A stretch of DNA of 64,000 bases from Bacteroidales bacterium (GCA_031286165.1 JAITUU010000055.1:404-64403); one strand, 5' to 3'. Numbered from the stretch's first letter, positions 1-45,960 are shown. Made by a program: numbers and translations. Notes: generated by a model not told the origin, from the letters alone.

Positions 1-378
1 TTAGCGATTTGAAAGAATTGCATACACCGAAAGGTTCACCGGAGTAGTGCCGGTGTTGGTAAAATTCAGTTCTATGAGCGAAGAATTGGCAGGAATTGAA
101 TCTTCCACAAATTTGTAGGCAGCATCTTCTACCACGTAATTACCGTTGAATGTGAATAACACCACATCGGTATTGTCGGGCAAAATTTCCACCCCGCCTA
201 CTTTTATGCCGCACTGCACGTATGTTATATCGTTGCCTTGCTGCGGTATAATCACCACACCGTCTATGTGCGAAAAATCATTGCGTAATTGCTCGCTAAC
301 ACTTTGAATTACTTTTTCTTCGGGATTGCCCGAAGAGGCTGGTAAGGTAACGGTGATTTTTTGGTATGTTTTTTTCAT
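1..378 (-). CDS. Hypothetical beta-rich protein (125 aa), last visible gene of the structural-like operon
   Basis: Complete ORF (ATG at 378, TAA at 1-3), 3 nt downstream of the preceding gene. The composition is rich in V/T/N/I. No recognisable motif. Confidence 0.45.
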   Translation of the reverse strand: MKKTYQKITVTLPASSGNPEEKVIQSVSEQLRNDFSHIDGVVIIPQQGNDITYVQCGIKVGGVEILPDNTDVVLFTFNGNYVVEDAAYKFVEDSIPANSSLIELNFTNTGTTPVNLSVYAILSNR

Positions 379-381
379 GGC

Positions 382-1248
382 TTATATTTTTTTGTAAAGG
401 AAGGTAAAGGCTAAATCAATGGTATTTACCGCATTGCCGTCTATCATAATGGTGGAGTACGCATTGCGGTTGAAACGGTCGGTGTAGTAGAGTTTTAAAA
501 AAAGGTTGCGTTTTGTTTCTTCGGAAAAGAACCACACGCAGTTTTTCCACGCTATGGTATTGGTGGCGCACAAGGGCAAAACGTCCATTTTTGGCATAAA
601 AATTTCAGTATCGGCTCCATATACGTCCACAAGTATATTCGATTGCAATAACGAAGGTATATACGTAGTGGGGAAAGAGAATAGTTTGCCGTCAGTTTCG
701 CGGCTGTACGTAGGAAAAATAAAAAATCCGAGTGGTGATTTATCGAACTGCACGCCTATTTCTTGTTGTGGCGGTGCAAGTATGGGTTGTAATTTTTGAG
801 GTGCTGGGTTTACTATGGTAGGGTTTTCACTGCGCAGGCGCAAAAGTTTTGTTTCCATAAAGGTAACGCCGCTGTAATTGCGGTCGGCTTCGTTGTCGCT
901 TTCTGCCATTGTTTTTGTATCATATACAAACACTATGTTTACGTCATTATCGCGCACACCGCTTATTTTTACCTGTGAATTATTCACGTCCATACCCACG
1001 CGCAATGCTACTTTGCGCCAATCTATATAGTGCCTGCGGTCGAGTGTTTCGGTGCAAAACGGCAACATAATCATGTTGCGGCATATTACGGTGTTATTCA
1101 CCGCAATAGATATACAATCTGGTACAGAACCGCAAGAGAACATTCCGCCATTTTTATTTTCAAAGAAAATGTAGCGAAGACTTTTTGCTTCGAGCGGTGT
1201 GTTGCTTACTATTTCGGTAGAACTTGACGGTATGCTTTGGAAAAACAT
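382..1248 (-). CDS. Hypothetical beta-rich protein (~288 aa); speculative double jelly-roll-type capsid candidate
   Basis: ATG at 1248 is preferred over the tracked TTG at 1299. The protein has two beta-strand-rich halves of similar size. It sits in an operon with small membrane proteins. The capsid assignment is inference only. Confidence 0.35.
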   Translation of the reverse strand: MFFQSIPSSSTEIVSNTPLEAKSLRYIFFENKNGGMFSCGSVPDCISIAVNNTVICRNMIMLPFCTETLDRRHYIDWRKVALRVGMDVNNSQVKISGVRDNDVNIVFVYDTKTMAESDNEADRNYSGVTFMETKLLRLRSENPTIVNPAPQKLQPILAPPQQEIGVQFDKSPLGFFIFPTYSRETDGKLFSFPTTYIPSLLQSNILVDVYGADTEIFMPKMDVLPLCATNTIAWKNCVWFFSEETKRNLFLKLYYTDRFNRNAYSTIMIDGNAVNTIDLAFTFLYKKI

Positions 1249-1331
1249 AATGCGGTAGATTTTTGAGTGTTTGTTTTTGAAAAGTAAGTAGCGCAGCAAG
1301 CGAAAAACTTGCTACGCTACTATGTGTGCAT

Positions 1332-1880
1332 TTATGCACGCACGGTCATAACTCCGTGTAATTCAAGACGCGCGGCAACTAAGCCTGCACAACCTGCGCT
1401 GAGATACAATTTTGCATCAATCGGGGCTGACGGTACAATCAATTTTGGGCAATCGAGCGCAAAATAGTTGTTCCATTTTGCAGTTGTGCCGGTTACGAAA
1501 CGTCCATTGCTCATGCGTGGCAAAATCGGTTTGCCGCTCACGTTAATTTCTATTTCGCCGTTGGCTACATTTTTGTTTAACTGTCCCGAAAAATCGGCTT
1601 CGGCAACATTTCCACCGGCTGTAATAGTTGCCGTGCGCAAACGAACGCCTGTAAGCAACATATAGTTGCCTTGTTCCAATTTACCTGCGTTTACATTGGT
1701 AAGTCCGGTCGATTGTACATCGCTTGCGAGTACCATATCTACGCTGGTGTTCGATTTCAAATCTTTTGTGAAGTATATTACTTCGTCCACAAGGGTTATT
1801 TGTCCTGCATTATATGCTGCCGCCATTGCAGATGGCAATAAAGGTAGTGCTTTTGTTTCAAAAATGTTTTTTGTTTCCAT
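1332..1880 (-). CDS. Hypothetical beta-rich protein (182 aa); speculative jelly-roll capsid/vertex candidate
   Basis: Clean ORF with no TM segments and alternating hydrophobic patterns typical of a beta sandwich. The functional call rests on context only. Confidence 0.35.
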   Translation of the reverse strand: METKNIFETKALPLLPSAMAAAYNAGQITLVDEVIYFTKDLKSNTSVDMVLASDVQSTGLTNVNAGKLEQGNYMLLTGVRLRTATITAGGNVAEADFSGQLNKNVANGEIEINVSGKPILPRMSNGRFVTGTTAKWNNYFALDCPKLIVPSAPIDAKLYLSAGCAGLVAARLELHGVMTVRA

Positions 1881-1919
1881 AATAGTAATTTTTTTATTTT
1901 GTTTTGATTTTTTTGTTTG

Positions 1920-2453
1920 TTACAGAATATTTGCATATCCTACACCGCTCACCGGTTGTTGTGTCAATGAGGGGTCAATAGATGCCTCGAAAGAAGTAGG
2001 TATGCCGGGTACATCTCGCACGGCAGTGTCCCACGCGCCTATACCCGGTAGGGCTGGTAATTGTGGTGATGCACCTACGGTTACATCTTCGTCTTCGGCT
2101 GCGCCGAGTGCTACGATAGATTTACCGGCGGCAGCATTTACCAAACCTACACCACCGGCGAGGGCTGCGCCAAAGCCTATATTGGCTATGTGTTGATTTT
2201 TGCTCAGCATGATTGCTGCTACACCGGCGGCGGTGGCAATCAATGGCGAAGTGAATTTACTTGTTGCTCCGTCCAAACCTAAAAGGTCGGTGCCGGAAAC
2301 TACATCTTTTTTCTCCACAAATTTTTTGATTTGCGAGCCAATCACCATACCAACCATAGCCTCGCCCGCAACGAGGGCTACGCTTGTCAATGATGACGCT
2401 TTTTTTGAATTTGTGCCGCGCGAAGTGCGGCGGCTTGTTTTGCGTTTTTTCAT
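1920..2453 (-). CDS. Membrane protein with a strongly basic N-terminus and Gly/Ala-rich TM segments
   Basis: N-terminus MKKRKTSRRTSRGTNSKK, followed by hydrophobic G/A-rich stretches (VALVAGEAMVGMVIG, AAGVAAIML, GFGAALAGGVGLV). Confidence 0.5.
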   Translation of the reverse strand: MKKRKTSRRTSRGTNSKKASSLTSVALVAGEAMVGMVIGSQIKKFVEKKDVVSGTDLLGLDGATSKFTSPLIATAAGVAAIMLSKNQHIANIGFGAALAGGVGLVNAAAGKSIVALGAAEDEDVTVGASPQLPALPGIGAWDTAVRDVPGIPTSFEASIDPSLTQQPVSGVGYANIL

Positions 2454-2459
2454 AGTTAA

Positions 2460-3020
2460 TTATATTAAAGAGATTGCTTTTACTTTTGTTTGAGTGCGGC
2501 GTGCGGCACCTTTTTTGCGCGAGTTTCGGCGTTTACGCGAAACTCCTGCAAGTCCGAGTGAAGATAGTGCTGTGGCGGTGGTTGGTTTCTTTTTCGTCAT
2601 TTTATAAATGCCGATGCCGAGTAAACTTACACCAACAACAATAGCACCACCTATTTTCACCTTTTTTTTCATGTCGTCTGTTAGTGTCATAGTGTTTGTT
2701 GTATTAGAATTATTTGTATTAATAGTTGCAGTAGTCGGTGTGGTGGCTACGTGTGTTTGTGCTATGGTTTTGGGTGCTGCTACCACGCTTTCTTTGAGGT
2801 ATTTATTTGCCACCCACCCTGTTTGCGAATTGTAACTCACTCTGCGCCATACCGTACCCTCGCTGTCGGTTTGGGTTTCTTGCGGCGGCACGGTAATCAT
2901 AATAGGAGCACTTGTAACCTGCGCGTAATTCGGAATAGTACACAAAACGCTTGCCGTGCTGTTTGCACCGCTGCGCAGGTTGAGTGCTCCCGAAGATAGT
3001 GTTACGGTATATGTTGCCAT
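2460..3020 (-). CDS. SH3b-like domain protein with a TM helix and basic C-terminal tail
   Basis: The N-terminal LNLRSGANSTASVLCTIPNYAQV...WRRVSYNSQTGWVANKYL resembles a bacterial SH3 domain. Also has a T/N-rich linker, a TM segment IGGAIVVGVSLLGIGIY and an RKRRNSRKKGAARR tail. Confidence 0.55.
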   Translation of the reverse strand: MATYTVTLSSGALNLRSGANSTASVLCTIPNYAQVTSAPIMITVPPQETQTDSEGTVWRRVSYNSQTGWVANKYLKESVVAAPKTIAQTHVATTPTTATINTNNSNTTNTMTLTDDMKKKVKIGGAIVVGVSLLGIGIYKMTKKKPTTATALSSLGLAGVSRKRRNSRKKGAARRTQTKVKAISLI

Positions 3021-3024
3021 GTTG

Positions 3025-3414
3025 TTATTTTTTTAGTGCTATTACTGCTATTAGTCCCAATACAGCCACCCCACCGCATATACCAACTGTTAAAAGTGTG
3101 TTTTTTCTTTGCGCTTGTTGTTGTTGTAACAACTGCTGCTGCAATGAAACGGTGTTTGTATTGCTTGTGGTGGTCGGTGTGGTGGTTTGTGTATTGGTTT
3201 GTAGAGTTGGCGGTGTTATTGTTACCATATTTTTTACGGCTTCCACAGTACCACTACCTACTTTTTTGAAAAAATTGCCTACTTTTTGAAAAAATTCGCC
3301 GTTCAAACTTTGGTAGTATTCTTCGCCATTAATGCCCATAACGCGGATGAGTTCCATACCGTTGTGGTAAATGGCGTTATTATCGGCGGTTCCGTTTAAA
3401 TATTGCAGTTTCAT
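3025..3414 (-). CDS. Small protein with a T/Q-rich linker and C-terminal TM anchor
   Basis: C-terminal LLTVGICGGVAVLGLIAVIALKK. Packed tightly between neighbouring genes. Confidence 0.5.
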   Translation of the reverse strand: MKLQYLNGTADNNAIYHNGMELIRVMGINGEEYYQSLNGEFFQKVGNFFKKVGSGTVEAVKNMVTITPPTLQTNTQTTTPTTTSNTNTVSLQQQLLQQQQAQRKNTLLTVGICGGVAVLGLIAVIALKK

Positions 3415-3416
3415 GA

Positions 3417-5588
3417 TTATAGTCCTATTAACGATTGAGGTTGTTTTTTGGGTTTGAGGGCATATACGAGCAATCCGAGTGCGCCGAGTGTGCCAACTGC
3501 GATACCTACTTTTGCGCCGATGCTTAATCCTTGTGCTGCCGGTACCGAATTGTTTGCTACATAGTTCACATATTCATTTTCTGCGAGTTCGGGGTGTTCG
3601 GCTATAAAAGCCTGCCCTTCGGGAGTAGTCATGTACGAAGGGTCGGCAGTAATTTGATTGATAAAATGCTTCTCGTCTTCGGGCATGGAAGTAAACCATT
3701 CTTGATTTGCGTAATCTGCCGACTGTGCTTGTACGGCTGTTGCTCGTGTGTTAGCCTCAATTATATCGTTTGCAGTATCATGTTCTATGGCTGCTTTTTC
3801 GCTTTCTTTTTTTGCGGCAGAGCGTTGCGCAAGGGCTGCACCAAAAGTTGCCAAGCCACCTACTAACCCAATAATAGAAATAATTACCGGCGTTGCTGCG
3901 GTGGTGGCGGCTGCGGCTACTACTACGCCGAGTGCGCCTAAGCCTTGCACGGCTTGTTCCACTTCTTTTTGTATGGTTACAATGTCGGCATTGGTGCCGT
4001 TCGGGTCAAATTCGGCACCTTGTGCAATGAGTTCTTGTTTATCTGCCTCTACATCGGCATCAATTTCGACTTGTTCTTGCGGAGAGAGCGAGGCACTTGC
4101 CTGTTCCATTTCGGCTTTTGAGTAGGTTTCGCTACCCTGCCATTTTTTCTTAGCACCTTTGCGAATTGCGGCTTCGAGTTTGGCGCGTTTGCCCATAAGT
4201 CGGTCGGCATAGAGTTTGGCAACTTTTTCAAATTTCTCTTTTGCTTTTGCTATTTGTTCGGGGGTGTATCCTGCGTTGGCTGCCTCTTGCGGTTCTATTG
4301 CAGGGAAGAGTTTTAAAGCCATTTTAAACATATTCAAGCGCATGGCAATGAGCACACCTGCTTTGGCGGCTAACGAAAGCGGATTGAAACGAATAATTGC
4401 TTTTACTACTTTTTTTGCAACATTTGCAACGGTTTTTACTACTTTTTTCACTGCTTTGCCGGTGGCTTTTGCTGCGGCTTTCACTGCTTTGCCGGTTTTT
4501 TGCGCCACTTTTTTGGTAGCAGTTGCTACTTTTTTTACCGCTTTTTTTAGTTTTTCTTTCACCTTACCTTTACCGGCAAGTCCCATGCAGTCGCTCAAAC
4601 CTGCAAGTCCGAGCAAGAATTGTTCGTAGCGGTCTTCGCTGATGTGCGCTCCTTCGAGTAAATTGAGTGCGTGATTGCGCGTTGCGGAATTGTTGTAATT
4701 GGCTATAATGTAGCCGAGTGCAGCCACTGCTATTTGCGCATCTTCGGGGGTATCGAAATATTCCGCAGGGGACGAAGATATGGCACTTCGTACCCCCTCG
4801 AAATATTCTTTTACACTCGGTTCGCTGGTGGTGTTTTCTACAAGCGGTAAACCTTGCAGGACATAATTGATAGTAGTTTCGTGTTCTGGTGTGCTGCCAA
4901 GTCCTTGTAGCATATCGGCTGTGGTGGCACTCACTTGTGTTATTGTTTTTTCTTCGGGTTGTTCGGGGCTAAGTCCTTCGGGCGTGGTGTCGCTTGTGGC
5001 GGTAATGGTAGGTTTTACGCGCACTTTACGCATTTTTGCTATGGCACTGCGGCGGTTGTGCAGTTTTTTTGCAAGCAAACCGCTTTGCACAGCGTGTTTG
5101 AGGTCGCGAGTTTCGGGAGTAAGTGCGGCGTTGGCATTGAGGTCGCGAATGTGAGAAAAAAATCCTGCTTTTTTCTCGCGTAAGCCACACAAAGCGTGCG
5201 TATCTTCGTCTATGCTAATGGCTCCAACGCGCATAAGGCGTTCTTCTTCTGCGGCGGCATTGTTAAGTGCTTCTTCGCGGTTGGCAGTGTCCCAATGCTG
5301 AATTACATAGCCAAGCATATCTACCAAATCCGCCGGATTTTGATAGCCTGCTACGGCAATGGGGGTACGTTCGGCTATGGTTTTTGTACGCACAAGATGA
5401 TTGAGCAACTGTTCTTCATCTTCCACAGAACCGTTACCCTCAAAACCTGCAAAATCAAGTCCTTTGAGAACGGTGTCAATATCGTTGCTTACTCTGTGTG
5501 CAGCAATAGCACGGTGTGCCATAGTAGTATAATGTGGCGCAGCACTGCGAAAACCGTCTAAAAATTGTATGTCAATTCCTTGTATCAT
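3417..5588 (-). CDS. Large membrane-associated protein (723 aa) with a duplicated N-terminal module, a Lys/Ala-rich histone-H1-like segment and two TM regions
   Basis: ATG at 5588 overlaps the upstream stop (ATGA). Contains KKAVKKVATATKKVAQKTGKAVKAAAKATGKAVKKVVK. TM stretches are GALGVVVAAAATTAATPVIISIIGLVGGLATFGAAL and IGAKVGIAVGTLGALGLLVYAL. Confidence 0.5.
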   Translation of the reverse strand: MIQGIDIQFLDGFRSAAPHYTTMAHRAIAAHRVSNDIDTVLKGLDFAGFEGNGSVEDEEQLLNHLVRTKTIAERTPIAVAGYQNPADLVDMLGYVIQHWDTANREEALNNAAAEEERLMRVGAISIDEDTHALCGLREKKAGFFSHIRDLNANAALTPETRDLKHAVQSGLLAKKLHNRRSAIAKMRKVRVKPTITATSDTTPEGLSPEQPEEKTITQVSATTADMLQGLGSTPEHETTINYVLQGLPLVENTTSEPSVKEYFEGVRSAISSSPAEYFDTPEDAQIAVAALGYIIANYNNSATRNHALNLLEGAHISEDRYEQFLLGLAGLSDCMGLAGKGKVKEKLKKAVKKVATATKKVAQKTGKAVKAAAKATGKAVKKVVKTVANVAKKVVKAIIRFNPLSLAAKAGVLIAMRLNMFKMALKLFPAIEPQEAANAGYTPEQIAKAKEKFEKVAKLYADRLMGKRAKLEAAIRKGAKKKWQGSETYSKAEMEQASASLSPQEQVEIDADVEADKQELIAQGAEFDPNGTNADIVTIQKEVEQAVQGLGALGVVVAAAATTAATPVIISIIGLVGGLATFGAALAQRSAAKKESEKAAIEHDTANDIIEANTRATAVQAQSADYANQEWFTSMPEDEKHFINQITADPSYMTTPEGQAFIAEHPELAENEYVNYVANNSVPAAQGLSIGAKVGIAVGTLGALGLLVYALKPKKQPQSLIGL

Positions 5589-6661
5589 GCGAAATCTTTG
5601 TGTTTTGAGGTTGGTTTTTCGTAAAAGCAGGCATCTACCACCGGGTCGCACACGAGTTCTACGCCATTGTGAGGTACCACCACATACACGTGTTGGTAGT
5701 TTTCTTTGCCATTGTAAGCCGCTATGCGAAAAAAATAGGGAATATTCAAATTTTCCAACAGAGAAGCAATAAGAGTGCTAAAACAATCGCAATCGCCTTT
5801 TCTGTCATACAAGGTGCGGAGCGGACGGCGCACTTGTTCGGTAGTGGCACTGTCGGGAACGTACTGAATGTAGTTATACACAAAATCGAAAATCGCCTGC
5901 AAGGTTTTTTCAACGGTAGATTTTTTCAACTGACGAGCAAGCATGGCAGTATCGGCTTTGCATTTTTTTGCAATTTGCTGCATAAAAATTACGGTATCTT
6001 CTACCGAGCCGTTGGGAATACATATTAGGTCGCGGTTTTTTAGTGCCGATTTGAGCGGAATAAATTTTTCGTAATCGGCAAAGGGTTTTATTTTGCGCAA
6101 ACTTGCTGCTACAAGCCCTAAGCCACTCATACTTGCCCGTGTGTGATTTTGAGCATTTACCTGTTTTTCTTCGCCGAGTGCAATTTTATTGATAGAAAAT
6201 ACAACACTATCATTGTAGGTACAAGTAACGTTGAGCGTAATATCGGTCAAAAGAGTATTGAAATCACCACCGGTAATAATATTATTGATAGCCGAGCCTG
6301 CTACTGCAATAAGGGAGGTGAGCGAAAGCACTAAATCTATGCCGGTAATGGTAGTAGTAGCGTATTTTTGTATGGTAGCACTTGCGGTGGTAGGGTTGGT
6401 AATACCCATTGACTTGCCTTTATAGAACACTTCTACGGCGTTCACACCTACTTTCATAGTTTGGTCGGTGCGGTTGCCTATTGCTACTGCAAGGGGGATT
6501 TTTACTTCGGTAAGCGAAATTTTTATGCTTTTGAGGTTGCCGTTGAGTTTTGGTGAAAACGAAAGTAGTTTTGCAAAATTGGCAAGTTGGGTAATTTTCA
6601 GAATACCGAAAATTGCGCCAATACCGAAAAGTCCGAGTAAAATTTTGTGTTCGTTTTGCAT
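5585..6661 (-). CDS. Membrane-anchored transglutaminase-like (Cys-His-Asp) peptidase-fold protein
   Basis: N-terminal TM segment ILLGLFGIGAIFGILKI. The C-terminal GDCDCFSTLIASLL...YQHVYVVV...VCDPV matches the transglutaminase-core pattern. Confidence 0.6.
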   Translation of the reverse strand: MQNEHKILLGLFGIGAIFGILKITQLANFAKLLSFSPKLNGNLKSIKISLTEVKIPLAVAIGNRTDQTMKVGVNAVEVFYKGKSMGITNPTTASATIQKYATTTITGIDLVLSLTSLIAVAGSAINNIITGGDFNTLLTDITLNVTCTYNDSVVFSINKIALGEEKQVNAQNHTRASMSGLGLVAASLRKIKPFADYEKFIPLKSALKNRDLICIPNGSVEDTVIFMQQIAKKCKADTAMLARQLKKSTVEKTLQAIFDFVYNYIQYVPDSATTEQVRRPLRTLYDRKGDCDCFSTLIASLLENLNIPYFFRIAAYNGKENYQHVYVVVPHNGVELVCDPVVDACFYEKPTSKHKDFA

Positions 6662-6790: not shown

Positions 6791-7105
6791 TTATTTATAC
6801 CCACTCAAAGTTGCCGCCGGAGCAATTCGGTGTATCCATACCATATCATTGAATACGGTGTATAATATAGTTTCACTTTTATAATTTATTCTGCGTACAA
6901 ATTCTCCATGTTGTAACACAGAGCGCGGTATGGTAATAACGGCAAATGAAAGAGGGTAGAATTGGAGGCGTTCTATTTCTTTTAGTAATCCAACGAGATA
7001 TTTTTCAGCAGTGCGCGGAGCATGATAGGTGTAAAATATTCTATCGAATACTTTTATTAAATCCGTTCTCGCTTGTTGCGAATATTCAATTTTATACTGC
7101 TTCAT
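6791..7105 (-). CDS. parE: Type II toxin, ParE/RelE family
   Basis: 104 aa; MKQYKIEYSQQARTDLIKVFDRI...AEKYL..LLKEIERLQFYP is the typical ParE layout. Overlaps a small upstream partner gene. Confidence 0.7.
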   Translation of the reverse strand: MKQYKIEYSQQARTDLIKVFDRIFYTYHAPRTAEKYLVGLLKEIERLQFYPLSFAVITIPRSVLQHGEFVRRINYKSETILYTVFNDMVWIHRIAPAATLSGYK

Positions 7106-7304
7106 TTATGGGAAACTTACAATTTGTACCATAATGGTCGTTAAACTTCTTTTCCAACATTGACCACACTTCGCTATGCGAATATGAAGTTTCGCCCAAA
7201 GAGGAAGGGGGAAGAAAGGTTACAACTCTTTTGTGTTGCAAATCCTGTACTAATTTCACTCCGGCAGGGCGCGAAACGTCTATTTCTACTACTACTGTAC
7301 TCAT
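7092..7304 (-). CDS. Putative cognate antitoxin (70 aa)
   Basis: Small ORF overlapping the ParE-like start by 14 nt. Called from operon position only. Confidence 0.45.
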   Translation of the reverse strand: MSTVVVEIDVSRPAGVKLVQDLQHKRVVTFLPPSSLGETSYSHSEVWSMLEKKFNDHYGTNCKFPINEAV

Positions 7305-7403
7305 GGTTCTGTAATTTAATGGTATCTTTTCGCAAATATACTACATTTTTTATGCAAAAATTTGCAATTTCCTTTTTCTCTAATTTTTTTCATTTTCCTG
7401 TTA

Positions 7404-7628
7404 TTATAAAAGTTCAAACTCATACACCCAAACGTATCATCAATACCCATATTTGTTATACGGAATTTGAAAAACACAAACACCTTTAATAGACTTTGCG
7501 TGAAAGTAACTCATATACGTAGGTGTATGGTCAAAAAATAGCGACTTTTTTACCGGTTCTAATCTTCGGCAGGAAAGTTTGCATTGCTTATTTTCGCAGC
7601 GGCTTATGTCGTTTGATAAATATTCCAT
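7404..7628 (-). pseudogene. Decayed partial tandem duplicate of the adjacent ASCH gene (62-aa ORF + TGA TGA + YVWVYEFELL)
   Basis: The ORF contains RCENKQCK (compare KCENECK in the ASCH gene). After two in-frame TGA codons (7437-7442), the same frame encodes YVWVYEFELL*, which matches the ASCH C-terminus PYVWVYEFRLLKE. Confidence 0.35.
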
Positions 7629-7633
7629 TTTCC

Positions 7634-8026
7634 TTATTCTTTTAAAAGTCTAAACTCATACACCCAAACGTAGGGGTTGCTTTGCCATGTGCCAGAGCCA
7701 TAAATACTATCAAACAATTTTGAGAATGCCTTATATAGCAGTATATATGCAGGGTCTATACCCTCACTTACGCACTCGTGAGGTCTTATATCTTTCACCC
7801 TCTCGCAACGCACATCGGTAATTTCAACGAGGTGTGTTTCGTCTATTTGGCAAATTTCGCCGCCGAAATACTTCGGTTTACACTCGTTCTCACATTTGCG
7901 TATTCGGCAAAATTCCGCATTTCGTTCAAGGCATGGAATAAAATTTCTTATTATCCGCCGTGTCTGTGTTTTTCTACCCTCTATTACCGCTCGTAACAGT
8001 TCGGGTGTGAATTTTAGTTTTTTCAT
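7634..8026 (-). CDS. ASCH-domain-like protein
   Basis: The N-terminal MKKLKFTPELLRAVIEGRKTQTRR pattern is typical of ASCH domains. Start overlaps the upstream stop (ATGA). Confidence 0.6.
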   Translation of the reverse strand: MKKLKFTPELLRAVIEGRKTQTRRIIRNFIPCLERNAEFCRIRKCENECKPKYFGGEICQIDETHLVEITDVRCERVKDIRPHECVSEGIDPAYILLYKAFSKLFDSIYGSGTWQSNPYVWVYEFRLLKE

Positions 8027-8847
8027 AATTTTATATTAAAATATTTTTCTAAAAATTCTTTGCTATCAATCGGAAACATTCCGTAAAACACATATGTAAA
8101 ATCCTCGTAATTAGAGAAAAACAAGTTATGTACAAATAAATCTTCCACGTTCCGAAATTTCTTTTTGCTGACGATTTCCTTTTTTCGTTCCTTGTTCCAC
8201 CATATTCGTCCTCTATCAATCCACAGTTTTACGAATTTGGGGTATTTTTTGAATTGCTCGATTTGATTTTTGTTTGAACACATTGGGCAAATCATGCAGC
8301 CCAAACGCTTTGTAACATCAAATTTGCCATTTTTATAGTACAAATCGTGGCACTTAATACCGCGTTCACGAATAAAATCCGCCACATCTTTGTCCGTCCA
8401 TTCCAAAATAGGAAAATACACTTTCACTTTATCTTTTCCGTAACTGCGGCATATTTCAGGCTCTTTGTAACGCTTTTTTCGTGCCTCGCTTTCGCATTTA
8501 CGAATACCTTGTACGGAATAATTACACACCTTGTATTCTTTCAAAACTTCGCAGCAATAACGCACCCTGCGTGTGGGAAAACCGCGCTCCGAAATGAGTT
8601 GTAACATTGTTTTTTTCGGCATTATTATTTCGCAGCCATTTTCTTTGCAAAACGCTATAGTTCCTTGTGGGTCAATCGTTGTGGCTTTGTAAATTGCGCG
8701 GTATTTAATTCCTGCCATTTTAGCGATTTCCAAAATCACGCTGCTATCTTTGCCGCCCGAAAAACTAATTTCTATCTCTTCGTCGGTGTGTATTGAGCGC
8801 AGTAATTTTATCGCAAAATCTACCTTTTTTTGAAGTTCTTTTGTCAT
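8023..8847 (-). CDS. Phosphoadenosine-phosphosulfate reductase-family (PP-loop ATPase) protein
   Basis: PP-loop motif SFSGGKDSSV near the N-terminus. Cys clusters RYCCEVLKE and CMICPMC. Confidence 0.8.
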   Translation of the reverse strand: MTKELQKKVDFAIKLLRSIHTDEEIEISFSGGKDSSVILEIAKMAGIKYRAIYKATTIDPQGTIAFCKENGCEIIMPKKTMLQLISERGFPTRRVRYCCEVLKEYKVCNYSVQGIRKCESEARKKRYKEPEICRSYGKDKVKVYFPILEWTDKDVADFIRERGIKCHDLYYKNGKFDVTKRLGCMICPMCSNKNQIEQFKKYPKFVKLWIDRGRIWWNKERKKEIVSKKKFRNVEDLFVHNLFFSNYEDFTYVFYGMFPIDSKEFLEKYFNIKL

Positions 8848-9074
8848 ACTTTTTCTTTCAATTTTTTAATTAAAAAACCAATCGGCGAATGAATTTTTCC
8901 GTTACTTTCCAAAATCGTTTTCATGATTGAAAATACGCGGTGTCCGATAGGGGCGTAGTCGCATAGTTTCAAGATTGTTCTAACATCTTCTTGATTTGCG
9001 TTTAATTTTTTCAACTGCGAAACAAGTAATGAAGTGCTGTACTTTATTGTTCCGTTTTTTTCTAACTCTATCAC
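8844..9074 (-). CDS. Hypothetical protein (76 aa)
   Basis: ORF translationally coupled (ATGA) to the PAPS-reductase-like gene. Confidence 0.5.
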   Translation of the reverse strand: MIELEKNGTIKYSTSLLVSQLKKLNANQEDVRTILKLCDYAPIGHRVFSIMKTILESNGKIHSPIGFLIKKLKEKV

Positions 9075-9379
9075 GCTTAGCGGAATAGCAACCTTAAATC
9101 CGAAAAAATCATATTTATTTGGTAGGGATTTTGGTATTTTTTTTATTTTTCTTGTGTTTTTTACGTTTTTTCTTGACTTTTCATATTTTTTATTGTATAT
9201 TTCTGAAAACTAAAATTTAATGCTATTATTACCACACTATTAACTATATTATTTGTTGTTTTGGGTTGGATTTTATATATTTTGTTCGATTTGTGGATTA
9301 CTACTCCTACGAAAAATTACAAACCCAACCTTTCAGGCGGTATTGCACCAAAATCAAAACCGATATTTATTTGTTAATC

Positions 9380-9529
9380 TCAGCAATACCGACTTCTATC
9401 TCTCTTGCTTATTTCTCTGTATTCGTTTTCATCGCGTGTGCTATCGTGGTATCCTTTAATGTAGCCTGCTAAAAACACGCCTACGAGTGTTGCTATCACT
9501 ATAAATATTTCTGCTATTGTTGATATCAT
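9380..9529 (-). CDS. Small single-pass membrane protein (49 aa)
   Basis: ATG at 9529 overlaps the upstream stop. MISTIAEIFIVIATLVGVFLAGYI is followed by a charged tail. Confidence 0.4.
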   Translation of the reverse strand: MISTIAEIFIVIATLVGVFLAGYIKGYHDSTRDENEYREISKRDRSRYC

Positions 9530-9744
9530 TCTTCCGACCCCCCAAATTCTTCGTTTAGTTGTTTTTCCACCCAAAGCAAATATGCCTCTTTGTCGGCTTT
9601 TATGCTATCGGTGTCGTAGGTTGTTGTTGCAATCATTGTTTCGGGGTCAAAGTCAAATTTGCGGTGTTTTTTTGCAATTGATATACCCTCCTCAATTCCC
9701 ATTTTAAGGAGTTTTAGTACTGTTTCTTTTTGTTCTTGTGTCAT
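9526..9744 (-). CDS. Hypothetical protein (72 aa)
   Basis: Clean acidic ORF coupled to the downstream small membrane protein. Confidence 0.5.
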   Translation of the reverse strand: MTQEQKETVLKLLKMGIEEGISIAKKHRKFDFDPETMIATTTYDTDSIKADKEAYLLWVEKQLNEEFGGSEE

Positions 9745-9783
9745 AGCGTTTATGTTTTAAGTTATTCAATTCCTATGTGTAAA

Positions 9784-10302
9784 TTATTCGTTATTTCGGC
9801 GGTGTAGAGCGTTGAAATTTGCTCTTTCAAGCGCGTTGTAAATTGCTCAATCGGTGCATAGTGAATTAATAAGTTGCCCTGCGAGTTCATAGCCACCAAT
9901 TTCGGCGAAGCGTTGCATGATTGTGATAAAATCCGCGCCACCGTTGCTGCTGGCTGCTCATTTAACGTTTTCCCAAATAAAAACCGTTGGTCGGGAGTGA
10001 GCAATAGCGGTAAGTGCGTATTCGATAAGACTACTTCGTTCGCCAGCCAAGCCGTGTCGCTTGCCGGCAATGCTGAAATCTTGGCAAGGCGAGCCGAAAG
10101 TGATAATGTCAGGTCTTTTAATTCCGCTTTCGAGAATATGCTCAACTGAGCCGATGTGTTCTGCTGTTTCATAATTGTATGTGTAATTTGCGATTGCGTG
10201 TTTGTCAATTTCTGAAAAATAGACATGCGAAAACTTAAAACCCGCCGCGCACAATCCTTTGTGAAAACCGCCGTAGCCGCTGAATAAATCGAGTAAAATC
10301 AT
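9784..10302 (-). pseudogene. Decayed DNA (cytosine-5) methyltransferase (N-terminal third only, two in-frame TGA codons)
   Basis: Motif I DLFSGYGGF, motif IV GSPCQDFS and motif VI IWENVK, then a TGA (9958-9960) where ENVKG is expected. The same frame continues with ...FAEIGGYELAGQLINS, a second TGA (9847-9849) and a TAA. The TRD and motifs IX/X are absent. Confidence 0.75.
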
Positions 10303-10502
10303 AAAATATGTGCATTAAATAGTGTGCGTAACTCGGTTGCTAATACACAATAGGGAGAGATTGTGGTTGCAAATACCAAATATACTCTATTGCTATCTAC
10401 GCGAATATCTAATAAATTGAAGACCTCCTCTTTTTCTAAATATCTCAAAATAGGTATTATTTGCTTAGAATGTTTTGCAATGCTGTTATAACGTTCTTTC
10501 AT
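10299..10502 (-). CDS. Hypothetical protein (67 aa)
   Basis: ORF coupled (ATGA) to the methyltransferase remnant. Confidence 0.45.
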   Translation of the reverse strand: MKERYNSIAKHSKQIIPILRYLEKEEVFNLLDIRVDSNRVYLVFATTISPYCVLATELRTLFNAHIL

Positions 10503-10542
10503 AATTATTGGGTTTTAGTTATTAATTACTGCATAAAAAAAA

Positions 10543-10583
10543 CGGTACATTTCAATATGTCAATGAAATCGGTGGGTGGGGTG
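10543..10583. repeat. Boundary repeat family, copy A
   Basis: CGGTACATTTCAATATGTCAATGAAATCGGTGGGTGGGGTG, 41 nt upstream (in gene orientation) of the 67-aa gene start. Confidence 0.7.
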
Positions 10584-10613
10584 CGTTCTATTTCACGCCG
10601 TCATTAGCGGATT

Positions 10614-11416
10614 TTATGGTACAAATGCCGTTGTTTTTTCCGTTTTCACTATATAGGTTCGTTGCGATTTTCCGGTTTCCCAACGCGAGGATTTTTCCAA
10701 TTCGTACTGTTTGTTTTTGCAAAATGCAAGGAGTGCTTTGTTGAACCGCTTTTTGCTCCAATCTTTTGTATTCACGCCGGCATCGCCTATAAATTCGTTA
10801 TACACGGTTATTATTGACACTTCTTGGTTTATGCGCGTATTTTCGGGTGTATTTTCAAAATATTGTTCTGCCCATTCTGCAAAGTGGTCGCCCATTTCGC
10901 TTTCGTTTATGCGCTCAAAGAATTTTTTCATGGGCGGGTTTATTTTTCCGTTGTGCTCCACCACTGCTAAATAGTAGTGCAGACAATCAAGTAAAAAATT
11001 AACGTCTTCGTTTTTCCATTCGTCTGTATATTTGGGATTTTCTATAATATCGTAGCCAAAATCATCGCACACTTTGCGGCTTTCGCGGTAGTTGTTCAGG
11101 TCGGTTTTTTCGTGATACCAATCCGAAAAAATGACAAACTGAAAACGCCTCGCCGTAGAACTATCAAAATTCAGCGGCGTAAAATTGGACGTAAAAACCA
11201 TTTTGGGCGATACGGTATATTCTATGTTTTGTTCATGCTGGTGCATTTTTCGACTACTCATATCGCCGGTAATTTGCGAGTAAAAATGGTTGAATTCAAA
11301 GTATTTATTGCAGTCGTCAATCACAATGAGCGAAGTATTTTCGTCTATATTGGAAAACAAAAATTTGTCTTTCACAAGTTCTTTGTCGCGCCCGCCTTTG
11401 GTGAGTATATGTTTCA
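10614..11416 (-). pseudogene. 3' part of the primase/SF3-helicase gene, severed by the prophage insertion
   Basis: Begins directly after the junction with ...HILTKGGRDKEL..., then Walker B SLIVIDDC and KMVFTSNF (SF3 motif C-like). It has no start or Walker A of its own; those lie at 43421-43470. Confidence 0.8.
11412..11416. repeat. Target-site duplication, left copy (TTTCA)
   Basis: TTTCA at 11412-11416 is identical to 43416-43420. The bases on either side of each copy differ, so the duplication is exactly 5 bp, the length Mu-type transposition generates. Confidence 0.75.
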
Positions 11417-11538
11417 ATTTCTATGGGCTTCACAACCAAACACGAATTGAAAAAAAACGAAATACAATGTGTAATTACCAATAAATAAATAACTTACAAG
11501 CAAAAATAAGCATTACGAAAAGCAATACCAAATACGAA
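11417..11538. repeat. Prophage left end with putative transposase-binding repeats
   Basis: AACCAAACACGAA at 11434-11446 and the variant TACCAAATACGAA at 11526-11538 are the reverse complement of the right-end motif TTCGTGTTTGGTT. One more copy lies in the opposite orientation at 12001-12013. Confidence 0.6.
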
Positions 11539-43331: not shown

Positions 43332-43368
43332 ATACTAAGTTAGTGGAGGTGGCGAAAAAGTGAAAAAA

Positions 43369-43415
43369 TTCGTGTTTGGTTTAAATTTTTTTCGTGTTTG
43401 GTTTTGTGGATTATA
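43369..43415. repeat. Prophage right end with two putative transposase-binding repeats
   Basis: TTCGTGTTTGGTT occurs at 43369-43381 and 43391-43403 (22-bp spacing), 12 bp from the junction. Confidence 0.6.
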
Positions 43416-43420
43416 TTTCA
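43416..43420. repeat. Target-site duplication, right copy (TTTCA)
   Basis: See the left copy. Joining the flanks through one copy gives ...SGGSGKSLMFRSLRTLK-HILTKGGRDKEL... in frame. Confidence 0.75.
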
Positions 43421-45641
43421 GCGTGCGCAGAGAGCGAAACATAAGCGATTTCCCACTACCGCCGCTGCTTTCGTTGCTTTTGCCCACCGGCGATTTTTCG
43501 TGCGTTTCCATAGCCCACACCGCCCATGATTTTGAAGAAAATTTATAGCGGTGCATACAGTAGCCGAGTGTGAAACATTTTGAGAAAAAATTGAGCATTT
43601 GCTCGCAGGCTTCTTCGTTGGTAAGTCGTGCGCCGGTAAGGTTATATTGATTGGCTTTGAAGTAGGCGGCATCGTCTTCGGGTGTGCCGGTGGCACGGTC
43701 TTCCATTTCTTTGCGCCAATGTATGCGACTACCGTTTATAAGATAGCGAGCATAGTGGCTTTTGAGCGATTGCACCGCCGCGAAGTCATCGAAATTGGCA
43801 GTGCCTTCGTCCCAATCTTTCCACCATATAGCAGGTGCGGTGCGTGTGAATGAAAGCGGACATACATTTTTTTGATGTATAAAAAACGGTATTTTGCTGT
43901 ATGGCACGGTTTGTACACCCTCTTTGGTAACGAGTACGGCGGTGTTGGCAAAAAACATATATTGGCTGTTGTAAGTACTATCGGTTGTGTTGAGTTCTAC
44001 TCACGGCAGAAAACCGAATATCAACTGTTCTTTGTTGCCCAATTTTACATAGAGTTCGCACACGGTTTGGTTGTGCGAAGAAAGATAATCGAACGCAAAT
44101 TGGGTGATTTCGCCCACGCTCACTTTTTTTACTATGTTTCTTTGTATGCGAGCATACACGTTTTTGTCTTTTTCTTCGCCTATTATGCAAAAATCATTGA
44201 TAGTGAGAAAATTCACAAGCCACAGAGGGCGTATGTGATATTTTCCTTTGCCTTTTTCATTTTCGGAAAAATCATAAAATTGATACGGCATTGCGCCGTT
44301 GAATAGTTTGTTCACAGGGTTGTATTCCTCTGTGGCAGCAAATTTTTCTGGCAGAGTTACAGTGCGGCAATCGGTCATTTTTTTTGCCACACTGCGGCGG
44401 TTTTCTTCGCTCTCGGCAAAGTAATATACCACTTCTGCACATTTGCGCAGTATGCTTTTTTCGTTGGCAGTGAGCGACTGCACCACACCGGCACAATGCA
44501 CAGCACAGTGTCCGTATTGCTCCACTATGGCGGCAATTTCGGGCGAAGAACAAATGACCACTTCGGGTAGTTTGCAATCTTCATTTTTGCTGTATAGTTC
44601 TTGTAATTCCTGCAATCCGTGCCATTCGCACGCTTTGGGTGCAGGTTGGGATTTTTTTATGGAAGGTACTATCGGGCGTGTGCCTTTGTTCACGGCAATA
44701 TCAATACCTGCTTTTTTTGCAAGTCCGAAAAAGGTAGTCAAATCACTATCATTGCGTGGATTTTTGAGGCAAGCGGAGTATTGCGTGTTGGTATCTTTTT
44801 CGTTGTATTTCGAGCAAAAACGGCTCAATCGGTGGTAGTAGTCGCGCCCGCTTTCGCCAAATCGGGACACGAGCGTAAAGCCCAACGCGAGCCAATCTTC
44901 ATAGTCAAAGGCAATGTCGGCATAACTTTGCTCTATACGTTCCAGCACTTTGTGAAAATCAGCCTCTTCTTGGTCGGCAGGTTTTAGCGGTGTTGCCACA
45001 GGTGCGGCAGGTTCTCCGTAGCGGAGCCAAAACTCCACATCAAATAGTTTTGTTTCGCGTTCTTCGGGCAGTACTGCTTGTGGGTCGTGGCACAAAAAGC
45101 AGGCGCGGCTTGTATCTTTACCGCTCTGGTCGGTTTGCAATCCATACTCCGTGCGCAGGTAGTTACTCACGGCGGTAAAATATTCGGTTTGATATTTGGA
45201 ACAATCTACCGGAATGTTTTTGCCTTTCTCGGCTACGTAATCGGCTGCAATTACCCATTTCAATCCATCGCCGCTTGGTGAGCGAAAAAGAAGTTTTGTG
45301 GCAAAATACTCGTCGCCCAGCAATAATTGCTTAGTAGCCTCCACATCGGGCAGGTGGTCGAAATCGAGTACCATAATTCCGCTGTGGGTTATCAAATTTC
45401 CGGCACCACGCTTGGTGAATGTGCCGGAAAAGGCTGCATAATCGAAATTCGCCGCTTTGTATTTTTTAGCCTCTTTGAGGTTGGCTATGCTGCGAAGGTG
45501 CTTTGTAACGTGGTAGTATTCACTGCCTGTAATGAGTTCATATACATCACGCAGTGAGTAGGGCGTGGCAAATGGGGTTGTGTTTTGTATCGGTTTTGAA
45601 AAAACCGAAAATAGTGGATTTTTTTGTGTTTTTTGTGTCAT
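43421..45641 (-). pseudogene. 5' part of the primase/SF3-helicase gene (primase N-domain + PriCT-2-like + Walker A), with an in-frame TGA, truncated by the prophage
   Basis: The 546-aa ORF has SGIMVLDFDH and a PriCT-2-like YEDWLALGFTLVSRFGESGRDYYHRLS. An in-frame TGA lies at 44001-44003. The same frame continues to Walker A SSGGSGKS at the prophage junction. Confidence 0.8.
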
Positions 45642-45744
45642 AATATTTGGTTATTTAATATATAATATATATCTTTGTCAAAAATATTTGGTTCTAAGCC
45701 TCATTGATAGTTTGTGTGTCAGTGAGGCTTTTTTCGTTTTAGTA

Positions 45745-45960
45745 TTATTCCGGAAAGCCTATTTTTTCGCACACAAGTTTCATTTGTGTGGCGGTAAAAA
45801 TTTTGTCGCCGCGCTTGAACCCTATTTTTTGCAATTCGGCACAGAGGTTGGGTATGCTTTCTATGCGCCGCCACAGGGTTTTACGGCTTATTTTTAGTTT
45901 GTTACAGAGTTCGCTTACTCCTATCAGCGTGCCTTTTTCTTCATTCGTTTGTGCGTTCAT
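45745..45960 (-). CDS. HTH DNA-binding protein (excisionase/AlpA-like)
   Basis: 71 aa. LIGVSELCNKLKISRKTLWRRI is a typical HTH. Directly upstream of the primase gene. Confidence 0.6.
   Translation of the reverse strand: MNAQTNEEKGTLIGVSELCNKLKISRKTLWRRIESIPNLCAELQKIGFKRGDKIFTATQMKLVCEKIGFPE

Follow-up and report, generated by a model that had tools for sequence, protein, structure and literature searches.

SSIP-1, an orphan salt-lake phage of Salisaeta, is a tailless, membrane-containing icosahedral phage (PMC6356626) whose gp40 is a virion ATPase and the predicted packaging enzyme (PMC4124505). It has been placed among the viruses that use two single-barrel coat proteins and not one double-barrel protein (PMC4958249). 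Its 43.8-kb circular genome encodes a giant virion methylase, a PAPS reductase and an integrase. In viruses of the PRD1/PM2 type (Tectiviridae and Corticoviridae, Tectiliviricetes), an FtsK/HerA packaging ATPase is a hallmark, and this motor is generally regarded as universal for dsDNA viruses of that architecture.

The window analysed here is a stretch of 64,000 nucleotides from a Bacteroidales bacterium (GCA_031286165.1, JAITUU010000055.1:404-64403), and its positions 1-6661 probably belong to a temperate virus without a tail, whose icosahedral particle has an internal membrane and a double jelly-roll coat; they would cover the promoter-proximal stretch of its virion operon. This region carries eight minus-strand open reading frames (ORFs), all of them where the first-pass annotation had placed them (Table 1). 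Along the eight genes the spacers measure 0, 2, 4, 6, 39, 83 (or 32) and 3 nt, and five of the seven junctions are tight enough for the translational coupling that had been proposed. An alternative GTG start would extend the 723-aa product to 744 aa and make its gene overlap the upstream one; an alternative TTG start for the coat protein candidate gives an ORF at 382-1299, NCBI carrying the 288-aa form. The inventory drawn up earlier (an anchored transglutaminase-fold protein, a 723-aa protein with two transmembrane (TM) regions, three small TM proteins including one with an SH3b domain, and three soluble beta-rich proteins) was confirmed from the ORFs, Pfam and a Kyte-Doolittle scan, which detected TM segments in five proteins but not in the 182-, 288- and 125-aa products. 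The basic termini attributed to two of the small TM proteins were likewise seen, at the C-terminus of the 186-aa protein and at the N-terminus of the 177-aa protein. As had been noted from the sequence, none of the eight proteins resembles tailed-phage head or tail proteins, no such family being matched in Pfam, PHROG or NCBIfam. Profile searches assigned none of them to a secretion, adhesion or conjugation system either, and the six proteins other than the transglutaminase and SH3b ones had no significant match in the three collections.

Table 1. Features of the prophage in the window (strand as read in the window; folds are predictions)
Feature	Position	Strand	Description
Transglutaminase-core protein, 358 aa	5585..6661	-	N-terminally membrane-anchored; papain-like Cys-His-Asp
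Two-TM protein, 723 aa (from ATG)	3417..5588	-	Lys/Ala-rich basic tract
129-aa protein	3025..3414	-	Thr/Gln-rich linker and C-terminal TM segment
SH3b protein, 186 aa	2460..3020	-	N-terminal SH3b domain, Thr-rich linker, one TM segment, strongly basic C-terminal tail
177-aa protein (p177)	1920..2453	-	Basic N-terminus, then hydrophobic segment and Gly/Ala-rich stretches
182-aa soluble protein	1332..1880	-	Two N-terminal helices and predicted single jelly roll
288-aa coat protein candidate	382..1248	-	Predicted double jelly roll
125-aa soluble beta-rich protein	1..378	-	Complete; stop codon at window bases 1-3
Early/accessory arm of the same prophage	6791..11417	-	ParE-like toxin and small partner, phrog_874 protein, PAPS reductase, truncated C5 methylase, C-terminal (DUF5906) part of primase-helicase
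Other side of the interrupted prophage	43335..50340	.	N-part and middle of primase-helicase, GNAT protein, HTH regulators, PIN toxin
Primase-helicase, N-part	44001-45641		BT4734_N and PriCT_2
Primase-helicase, middle part	43335-43958		Walker A

The operon is conserved in about 20 loci, and every named host is a Bacteroidales or Paludibacter MAG. The arrangement is not due to chance, because the same order recurs in these independent loci: transglutaminase, large TM, SH3b, 177-aa, 182-aa, capsid and 125-aa genes, and then three further families (about 165, 120 and 350 aa), one variable protein, the lysis genes, a methylase and a strawberry-notch helicase. In relatives, the first product encoded downstream of the module's own genes is a coiled-coil protein, and the variable protein is spike-like; the lysis cassette is of the holin/endolysin kind, with holin and lysozyme/amidase/SLT functions encoded. 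Beyond the block of methylase and strawberry-notch helicase come a RadA-like ATPase and an integrase. The related elements are embedded in large contigs, at chromosomal sites that differ among MAGs; the integrase lies at their far end, adjoining host genes, and phage early genes (DUF551, YopX, DUF6291, SocA_Panacea) are present. One near-complete relative, rebuilt from the public viral-contig collection IMG/VR (45,930 bp, 45.9 kb), holds integrase, early genes, module and ATPase together. Its conserved gene order runs on across both ends, and there is no terminal overlap to prove circularity.

The three soluble proteins are the candidates for the shell. AF2 models were built on shallow alignments, of 10 sequences for the 288-aa protein and 13 for the 182-aa protein. 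The 288-aa model (pLDDT 78.4, pTM 0.81) comprises two beta-sandwich domains, which agrees with the earlier idea of two similar halves as far as architecture goes, but the halves have no sequence similarity to each other. Foldseek matched it in the PDB to PBCV-1 (6.6e-5), PM2 P2 (1.2e-4) and PRD1 P3 (2.2e-4; probability 1.00, TMq 0.43), and further to PR772, phiCjT23, mavirus and SGIV; in BFVD the matches were the major capsid proteins (MCPs) of cedratvirus, Klosneuvirus and pithovirus and of the tectivirus Wip1. The best matches in the two databases are mostly double jelly-roll MCPs, with probabilities of 0.96-1.00 and modest TM-scores (0.35-0.45), and the alignments to capsid proteins cover both domains; non-viral two-domain beta-sandwich proteins (PHM, CUB) are also among the PDB matches. 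On the strength of this model, the 288-aa protein is predicted to be a double jelly-roll coat protein. It has no sequence similarity to any known coat-protein family. Its own family amounts to 83 representative clusters among 1.84 billion proteins, and in its relatives the junction of the two jelly rolls is precisely where long insertions, of up to several hundred residues, are found. This site is unusual for capsid decorations and speaks against the assignment.

The 182-aa protein is the most conserved of the module (13 homologues, mean column identity 74%). Its model (pLDDT 74, pTM 0.75) is a predicted single jelly roll, so that jelly-roll folds were obtained for two of the proteins in which the first-pass annotation had sought them; Foldseek retrieved generic single jelly rolls, with Ena3A at 2.5e-4 and the coat proteins of CCMV, BMV and STMV and the KHP40 cement protein at about 1e-3. 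Judged by this fold, the protein is a candidate second capsid, capsomer-associated or vertex protein. The gene of the 125-aa protein, which has no PDB sequence match, always lies directly downstream of the capsid gene in relatives. The protein is a candidate penton (vertex) single jelly roll because its family resembles the C-terminal jelly roll of the coat protein family in a profile comparison (hhalign 74.7%, E 2.6e-5, 80 columns).

The other five proteins carry the membrane segments (all positions from the Kyte-Doolittle scan), which is in keeping with an internal membrane. The 358-aa protein matches Pfam Transglut_core (3.5e-7, residues 241-327) and DUF553 (3.8e-7) and has its TM segment at residues 5-27; Cys290, His323 and Asp338 are invariant in seven homologues including SSIP-1 gp34, and the protein is a candidate virion-borne, wall-degrading entry enzyme. 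In the 723-aa protein the TM regions (546-588 and 688-712) lie near the C-terminus and the Lys/Ala tract occupies about residues 346-405 of the translation. Its homologues, with lengths of 594-986 aa, hold the same position in loci L001, L004, L006, L009, L010, L012 and L013, and none was found in the IMG/VR relative (L021); it is a candidate internal-membrane protein contacting the genome. The 129-aa protein (TM 104-129), with homologues in L001 and L009, is a candidate small virion membrane protein. The 186-aa protein matches Pfam SH3_3 (3.1e-9, residues 12-76), has a TM segment at 120-141 and is encoded at a position conserved across relatives; it is a candidate membrane protein whose head would bind the wall and whose tail would face the DNA. 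Finally, the 177-aa protein, whose family was recovered from 12 of the 13 loci examined first and from both IMG/VR relatives, has a weak TM segment at 20-40 and is a candidate membrane protein.

Comparison with known viruses links the module to SSIP-1. Among 50,697 phage records, the transglutaminase protein has a single match, the virion protein gp34 of SSIP-1 (3e-8, 33% identity), which the family HMM finds at 1e-14. SSIP-1 gp40 matches the ATPase of the relatives (1.2e-11 for the IMG/VR relative), and gp43 gives a weak match to the methylase (0.0015; 4e-4). The first-pass annotation had likened the module to PRD1, PM2 and FLiP; the predicted double jelly roll upholds this likeness, but by gp34 and gp40 the closest characterised virus is SSIP-1. 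Both sides share a membrane-anchored transglutaminase-core protein (the virion protein gp34) with an invariant Cys-His-Asp, a RadA-like ATPase (gp40, found in the virion), a large methylase/helicase 'polyvalent' protein (gp43, part of the SSIP-1 virion), a PAPS reductase, an integrase, an endolysin and a genome of about 44-46 kb, as well as a similarly arranged series of structural genes (130-260 aa) and a host in the Bacteroidota/Rhodothermota branch. They differ in gene order, in the TM anchor of the transglutaminase (C-terminal in gp34, N-terminal here), in the polyvalent protein, which is split here into separate genes, and in the host, a halophile as against an anaerobic member of the Bacteroidales. 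The coat, too, sets them apart: that of SSIP-1 is described as two proteins of uncertain fold, and the capsid candidates have no detectable sequence similarity to gp44-48, gp53, gp57 or gp1.

An FtsK/HerA-type packaging ATPase was found neither in the window nor in any relative examined; the window copy is cut before the region that holds the ATPase in relatives. It had been supposed that such an enzyme might lie left of the window, a side on which the contig leaves nothing to inspect. The expectation of a packaging ATPase in the full element is only half borne out: the relatives carry one conserved ATPase, the sole packaging candidate, but it is RadA/RecA-like (PDB RadA, 1e-13) and not FtsK/HerA. 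Its role in packaging is not secure, because the same broad family also occurs in Mu-like phages, beside the transposase (window 16003-16659; MT836083).

With the PRD1/PM2-type viruses the module has in common the double jelly-roll coat protein (here predicted), a virion operon rich in genes for small membrane proteins, an enzyme for wall degradation encoded with the structural genes and the lack of tail genes, and a small jelly-roll protein beside the coat gene is comparable with the PRD1 penton protein P31. By contrast, their packaging ATPase was not found, its genome is 3-4 times larger than their 10-15 kb, it has a primase-helicase in place of a protein-primed polymerase or rolling-circle Rep, and it has the extra conserved 182-aa jelly-roll protein. 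The Finnlakeviridae FLiP and phiCjT23, lipid-containing Flavobacterium phages, share the Bacteroidota host and a double-barrel coat undetectable by sequence, phiCjT23 being among the structural matches and temperate as well; FLiP is devoid of an FtsK/HerA ATPase (PMC5894146), and none was found in the relatives of the module. The genomes of FLiP and phiCjT23, however, are circular ssDNA of about 9 kb replicated by rolling circle, as opposed to the roughly 40 kb here, which encode a primase-helicase, methylases and a block of polyvalent proteins.

An alternative is that the shell is built from two vertical single-barrel coat proteins, as in the Sphaerolipoviridae-type viruses P23-77, HHIV-2 and SH1, with the 182-aa protein as the small coat protein and the 288-aa protein as its large partner. 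In size the two come close to P23-77 VP16 and VP17, their genes are adjacent as are the small and large beta-barrel structural genes of that group, the 182-aa protein is the best conserved of the module, an internal membrane (here inferred) is common to both and some members are temperate; reviews moreover list SSIP-1 among viruses with two coat-protein types (PMC4958249). Yet no P23-77, HHIV-2, SH1 or HCIV-1 coat protein is among the best 50 Foldseek matches of either model, and the matches of the 288-aa one are dominated by PRD1 P3, PM2 P2 and the double-barrel proteins of giant viruses. In the P23-77-type group, furthermore, the ATPase gene stands directly upstream of the two coat genes, whereas here that block of ATPase, small MCP and large MCP is missing and a membrane-protein gene precedes the 182-aa gene. 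A two-single-barrel shell is, on balance, unlikely.

It seems still less probable that the element is not an autonomous virus. It might then be domesticated or a satellite, or its jelly-roll proteins might serve the cell, for instance in a particle resembling a gene-transfer agent or in a structure for secretion or at the surface. Its window copy is defective, no canonical packaging ATPase was found in window and relatives, and double jelly-roll coat proteins are known to have cellular homologues (PMC8812541). But the module always travels with integrase, lysis, replication and phage early genes, occupies different chromosomal places among MAGs, and is also found on IMG/VR contigs, and two of its proteins have homologues in the virion of an isolated phage. 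A very divergent tailed phage, with head, portal, terminase and tail genes beyond recognition, is highly improbable. The 723-aa protein is long, variable in length and equipped with TM-like segments, as are some tape measures, and many module proteins have no detectable family; this large protein is nevertheless missing from the IMG/VR relative. Genes for terminase, portal, HK97 and tail proteins (sheath, tube and baseplate included) were matched neither in the window arm (Pfam, PHROGs, NCBIfam) nor in the precomputed Pfam of the approximately 20 related loci, nor in a PDB search of the IMG/VR relative's unknown proteins. That genome has no spare ORF of terminase or portal size, because all its ORFs of at least 300 aa are accounted for, TM-anchored, or beta-rich/spike-like. 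The same tools, by contrast, recognise at once the tailed-phage genes of the Mu-like phage in the same window.

A tail-less virus with an internal membrane is favoured by which genes are present, by their conservation and order, by the predicted folds, by the homologues of two virion proteins of SSIP-1 and by the missing tailed-phage genes; from these I infer the membrane itself, the topology of its proteins, their entry and packaging roles and the particle shape. By analogy with PRD1-type viruses, trimers of the 288-aa protein would form pseudo-hexagonal capsomers, the 125-aa single jelly roll would occupy the five-fold vertices and the 182-aa one would add another component to the shell or its vertices. 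The five membrane proteins encoded upstream would sit in a lipid vesicle beneath the coat. Three of them have basic segments, a Lys/Ala tract in the 723-aa protein and Arg/Lys tails in the 186- and 177-aa ones, and these would face and condense the DNA. Binding to the host wall would be the task of the SH3b head; the Cys-His-Asp enzyme with its transglutaminase fold would cut that wall during genome delivery. The coiled-coil protein encoded downstream in complete relatives may be scaffold-like, and the genome would measure about 37-46 kb, like that of SSIP-1. A wider proposal, which I put forward tentatively and do not favour over its contrary, is that these elements form with SSIP-1 an undescribed lineage, of family rank or higher, of temperate viruses with large genomes (about 37-46 kb) that infect Bacteroidota and related hosts. 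Its shell might combine a double jelly roll with a conserved single jelly-roll partner, its methylase/helicase 'polyvalent' proteins might be delivered with the DNA, its capsid might be filled by a RadA/RecA-type ring ATPase and not by FtsK/HerA, and at least one member might diversify its spike-like protein by a retroelement.

The element in the window is probably an integrated, now damaged virus of an undescribed Bacteroidales virus group whose only studied relative is SSIP-1. This copy cannot be functional as it stands, because the primase-helicase gene is split, by the Mu-like phage and an in-frame stop, the C5 methylase is truncated and the rest of the operon falls past the end of the contig, which comes about 629 b beyond the left edge of the window. 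On the other side, host genes (tgt) begin at about 51 kb. The PAPS reductase of the window is 43% identical to that of the IMG/VR relative, and the primase-helicase, once rejoined, aligns in one piece with a protein of Bacteroides phage BT-TP2 (3e-64).

Every one of the eight minus-strand open reading frames (ORFs) described in the first-pass annotation was recovered in an ORF listing of the window, at its expected place, with intergenic spacers along the module of 0, 2, 4, 6, 39, 83 (or 32) and 3 nt. The transglutaminase fold and SH3b domain proposed there were confirmed by Pfam, which assigns a transglutaminase core to the 358-aa protein at 3.5e-7 and a bacterial SH3 domain to the 186-aa protein at 3.1e-9; the other six proteins had no significant match in Pfam, PHROGs or NCBIfam, and no module protein matched a tailed-phage head or tail family in these collections. 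A hydropathy scan reproduced the proposed membrane topology: the transglutaminase protein is anchored at its N-terminus, the 723-aa protein has two transmembrane (TM) regions, and the 129-, 186- and 177-aa proteins have a single TM segment each, which is weak in the 177-aa protein; the 182-, 288- and 125-aa proteins have none. Inspection of the translated sequences shows the Lys/Ala tract and the basic termini directly. The reading of this module as the particle operon of a tail-less membrane virus is supported, with a canonical packaging ATPase absent; the membrane, the shape of the particle and the roles in entry and packaging are what I infer from it.

Features of the module, the outer prophage, the inserted Mu-like phage and related loci
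Feature	Sequence	Coordinates	Strand	Remark
358-aa transglutaminase protein	window	5585-6661	-	first gene of module
125-aa protein	window	1-378	-	stop codon is window bases 1-3
288-aa coat candidate	window	382-1248	-	predicted double jelly roll
ParE-like toxin with small upstream partner	window	6791-7304		outer prophage
C5 methylase	window	9762-10302		looks like a pseudogene
Mu-like phage	window	11434-43403		inside primase-helicase gene
Terminal inverted repeats AACCAAACACGAA	window	11434-11448 and 43367-43381 / 43391-43403		Mu-like phage
218-aa ATPase	window	16003-16659		Mu-like phage
N-terminal primase-helicase parts	window	43335-45641		outer element
In-frame TGA	window	44001-44003		in primase-helicase
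PIN-domain toxin	window	49894-50340		outer prophage
RadA-like ATPase	L014	4879-5814		P-loop region shared with 218-aa ATPase
Divergent module	L022	2715-5760		UViG_3300010167_001182
Diversity-generating retroelement	L013	15768-19059		spike region
Variable repeat	L013	15768-15860		inside 626-aa protein
Template repeat	L013	17715-17804
Reverse transcriptase	L013	17905-19059		RVT_1 6e-19

The fold of the 288-aa coat candidate was predicted with AlphaFold2 from a 10-sequence alignment. With a pLDDT of 78.4 and a pTM of 0.81 the model is fairly confident; it shows two beta-sandwich domains, and each of them contains a short helix. Double jelly-roll capsid proteins make up the majority of its matches in the PDB with E <1e-3, namely those of PBCV-1 (6.6e-5), PM2 (P2, 1.2e-4), PRD1 (P3, 2.2e-4, probability 1.00, TMq 0.43), PR772, phiCjT23, mavirus and grouper iridovirus; the non-capsid matches are the two-domain beta-sandwich proteins PHM and CUB. 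In BFVD the best matches are capsid proteins of a cedratvirus, Klosneuvirus, Megaviridae, a pithovirus and an ascovirus, with that of the tectivirus Wip1 also among them. The TM-scores of these matches are modest (0.35-0.45) and therefore assign a fold class rather than a close match; at that level, the model supports placing the 288-aa protein in the double jelly-roll capsid class. The two similar halves attributed to this protein thus stand as two beta-sandwich domains of the model but not as a sequence repeat, since no mutual similarity was detected between its N- and C-terminal halves. The 182-aa model (pLDDT 74, pTM 0.75) shows two N-terminal helices followed by an eight-stranded sandwich, and the structures it matches are single jelly rolls of a generic kind (Ena3A spore appendage subunits, coat proteins of bromoviruses and satellite viruses, a phage cement protein). 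The suspected jelly-roll folds are thereby predicted for both proteins modelled, double in one and single in the other. Compared by profile, the 125-aa family aligns over 80 columns with the jelly roll at the C-terminus of the capsid family (74.7%, E 2.6e-5), a likeness expected of a penton protein, for which it is a candidate. Searched against PDB sequences, the profiles of the 182-, 288- and 125-aa families gave nothing meaningful.

In an unlikely variant of the coat reading, small and large coat proteins of the vertical single-barrel kind would be represented by the 182- and 288-aa proteins. [quoted passage not shown] The double jelly-roll assignment has a weak point of its own. Many 288-aa homologues are 400-830 aa long (P0025-P0058; alignment A1), and their additional sequence, as much as several hundred residues, lies precisely at the junction of the two jelly rolls, an insertion site unusual for this fold. 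In the homologues P0008 and P0009 the insert comprises a coiled coil, a Pro/Glu-rich stretch and an extra beta segment. A conjugative or secretion apparatus was rejected: an RteC gene beside the related locus L009 is located outside the element and adjoins host arsA, and no type IV secretion or relaxase gene occurs in any related locus.

The nearest known virus to this tail-less element is SSIP-1, a tailless icosahedral phage with an internal membrane and T=49, whose genome is described as having almost no database relatives (PMC6356626, PMC6260650). The annotation had likened the module to PRD1, PM2 and FLiP, a comparison in which the predicted double jelly-roll fold holds. The transglutaminase protein has a sole match among 50,697 phage records, SSIP-1 gp34 (3e-8, 33% identity), which is annotated as a structural protein; the family HMM matches gp34 at 1e-14, and the Cys-His-Asp triad is invariant in the homologues, gp34 included. 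In the relatives of the module, an ATPase matches SSIP-1 gp40 (1.2e-11 for UViG_3300031998_000188), annotated 'ATPase, structural protein' and listed by others as the predicted packaging ATPase (PMC4124505). When all module families were compared with all SSIP-1 proteins (HMM, hhalign), the transglutaminase was clear, the methylase weak and no other similarity was found; by the same methods the capsid candidates showed none to gp44-48, gp53, gp57 or gp1. The circular genome of SSIP-1, 43.8 kb in size, further encodes a 2319-aa virion methylase (gp43), a PAPS reductase, an integrase and an endolysin. The module supplies the first relatives of this orphan phage and yields a testable prediction on the fold of its coat.

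The 288-aa family is rare: a word-indexed collection of 5.8 billion proteins contains 10 clusters of it, and when 1.84 billion proteins were searched exhaustively by HMM, 83 representative clusters were recovered. It matches no known family. Queries with the module, the 182-aa and the 288-aa protein (DNA in distant mode, and protein) matched none of the 50,697 phage records, and a scan of IMG/VR with the capsid alignment found nothing; IMG/VR relatives were recovered with the 182-aa and ATPase alignments. Gene order was compared across contigs carrying the 288-aa family, two IMG/VR contigs and five loci, each within a large contig, from GTDB MAGs of Paludibacter, Paludibacteraceae and other Bacteroidales, and a single order is kept throughout. 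It runs from the transglutaminase protein through a large TM protein, a small TM protein (at some loci) and the SH3b/TM protein to the 177-, 182-, 288- and 125-aa families, then to families of ~165 and ~120 aa, a coiled-coil family of ~350 aa with weak scaffold-like matches, a variable protein of 450-940 aa, a small protein with a further family of ~165 aa, a lysozyme, amidase or lytic transglycosylase, an N6-adenine methylase and a strawberry-notch helicase. The methylase, a ~430-aa protein after the lysis genes, had been considered as a terminase or ATPase; its motifs EPSAGNG and TNPPF are those of an N6-adenine methylase. Phage early genes (DUF551, YopX, DUF6291, SocA_Panacea, Lin1244_N) lie 5' of the module in the relatives; at the far end, in L014 and L020, the helicase is followed by a RadA-like ATPase, an integrase on the opposite strand and host genes.

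Individual relatives depart from this plan. The divergent locus L022 has tandem 182-aa paralogues (243 and 218 aa), a 361-aa protein at the capsid-gene position that is matched by the 125-aa family HMM only, and a transglutaminase domain fused within a 690-aa protein. The Bacteroidales MAG locus L013 carries a diversity-generating retroelement in its spike region, with template/variable repeat mismatches located at template adenines; such elements are not otherwise known from tail-less jelly-roll viruses.

Four overlapping loci could be joined without conflict into the near-complete IMG/VR relative UViG_3300031998_000188 (45,930 bp). It has an integrase-like gene and early genes, among them a C5 methylase and a PAPS reductase that shares 43% identity with the one in the window. 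The transglutaminase protein, homologues of the 177-, 182- and 288-aa proteins and the two families that come next extend to one contig end. Genes at the opposite end are lysis-associated or encode the coiled-coil family, TM-anchored proteins, an N-terminally anchored GH24 lysozyme and a 637-aa spike-like protein. A 543-aa ATPase is encoded on the other strand, along with the methylase and the strawberry-notch helicase. A contig-end test found no overlapping terminal repeat; the conserved gene order runs on across both ends, which fits a circular or permuted genome. The listed genes and TM-anchored proteins account for all ORFs of at least 300 aa, so that none is left for a large terminase or portal. 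A PDB search with 3,656 residues of its unassigned proteins returned lysozymes only.

No FtsK/HerA-type ATPase was found in the window or in any relative. The annotation had suggested that a packaging ATPase might lie left of the window; the operon is cut there by the end of the contig, and what the relatives conserve is RadA/RecA-like (PDB RadA 1e-13, phrog_6891 7.5e-20). In the relatives, as in SSIP-1, this ATPase always adjoins the methylase/helicase block. Mu-like phages too have related ATPases, placed beside the transposase: the one in the window's Mu-like phage, 218 aa long, has its P-loop region in common with the ATPase of L014 (30% identity over 94 aa, 2.8e-8), and the faecal Mu-like contig MT836083 has the same ATPase adjoining its transposase. 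For this reason it is the virion data of SSIP-1 that suggest a packaging role, and by analogy with gp40 the RadA-like ATPase may package the genome. Leads from Walker-A scans proved false (host ArsA, an AAA_15 accessory ATPase, TM anchors mimicking the motif). The related loci L015/L016 and L018 were left out as evidence for the capsid module, which they lack; their block of methylase, strawberry-notch helicase, polyvalent protein and RadA-like ATPase has different neighbours (a collagen-like 633-aa protein, a Kinase-PolyVal 1842-aa protein) and seems to be a mobile cassette common to different elements.

Only a handful of isolates of tail-less membrane-containing phages are known. Their virion architecture is familiar; what is new here is the sequence family, the host order, a much larger genome, several-fold that of PRD1 or PM2, and a non-canonical ATPase. 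Surveys of prokaryotic double jelly-roll viruses began from known coat sequences, and the portions consulted contain no Bacteroidales group of this kind (PMC5894146, PMC9502842). In the literature covered, which is incomplete and may have missed an earlier report, neither relatives of SSIP-1 nor large double jelly-roll prophages of Bacteroidales are described. The coat family, with its few clusters, wholly evades sequence searches. The evidence supports the view that such viruses lysogenise anaerobic Bacteroidales, and it raises the question of how DNA is packaged without an FtsK/HerA ATPase. If a cultured carrier host can be found, the copies integrated in Paludibacter and related Bacteroidales MAGs, some of them possibly complete and intact, may offer a route to induction and structure.

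The copy in the window is a truncated and disrupted prophage. Hypothetical proteins identical to its 288- and 182-aa proteins are encoded on a 64,629-bp contig of a Bacteroidales MAG; at most about 629 bases therefore lie beyond the window, and it is the contig end, not the window, that cuts the operon. To the right of the module follow a ParE-like toxin pair, a PAPS reductase, a C5 methylase and the DUF5906-like C-terminal part of a primase-helicase. The C5 methylase ends after 114 aa, just beyond its ENV motif, with only ~65 codons between its stop and the next gene; its counterpart in the near-complete IMG/VR relative has 265 aa. The primase-helicase gene is interrupted, just after its Walker A motif, by a Mu-like transposable tailed phage with a transposase-sized ORF (712 aa, no Pfam match), a MuB-like AAA ATPase, DUF3164, a Mu portal, a Clp protease, a sheath-like DUF2586 protein and a tape measure. 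TGAAA is present on both flanks and may be a 5-bp target duplication. Beyond the phage, an in-frame TGA splits a 546-aa N-terminal from a 207-aa middle primase-helicase part, which resumes in the same frame 42 nt on; this TGA may be a recoded stop, or else a nonsense mutation in a prophage that is decaying. Rejoined, the primase-helicase aligns in one piece with a protein of Bacteroides phage BT-TP2 (33%, 3e-64). The host genes tgt, Sua5 and PGI start at ~51 kb and, together with the Mu-like insertion and the cut at the contig end, indicate that the outer element is integrated, phage-disrupted and truncated by the assembly. The outer prophage also encodes a PIN-domain toxin, and a PIN homologue lies directly 5' of the transglutaminase gene in the near-complete IMG/VR relative.
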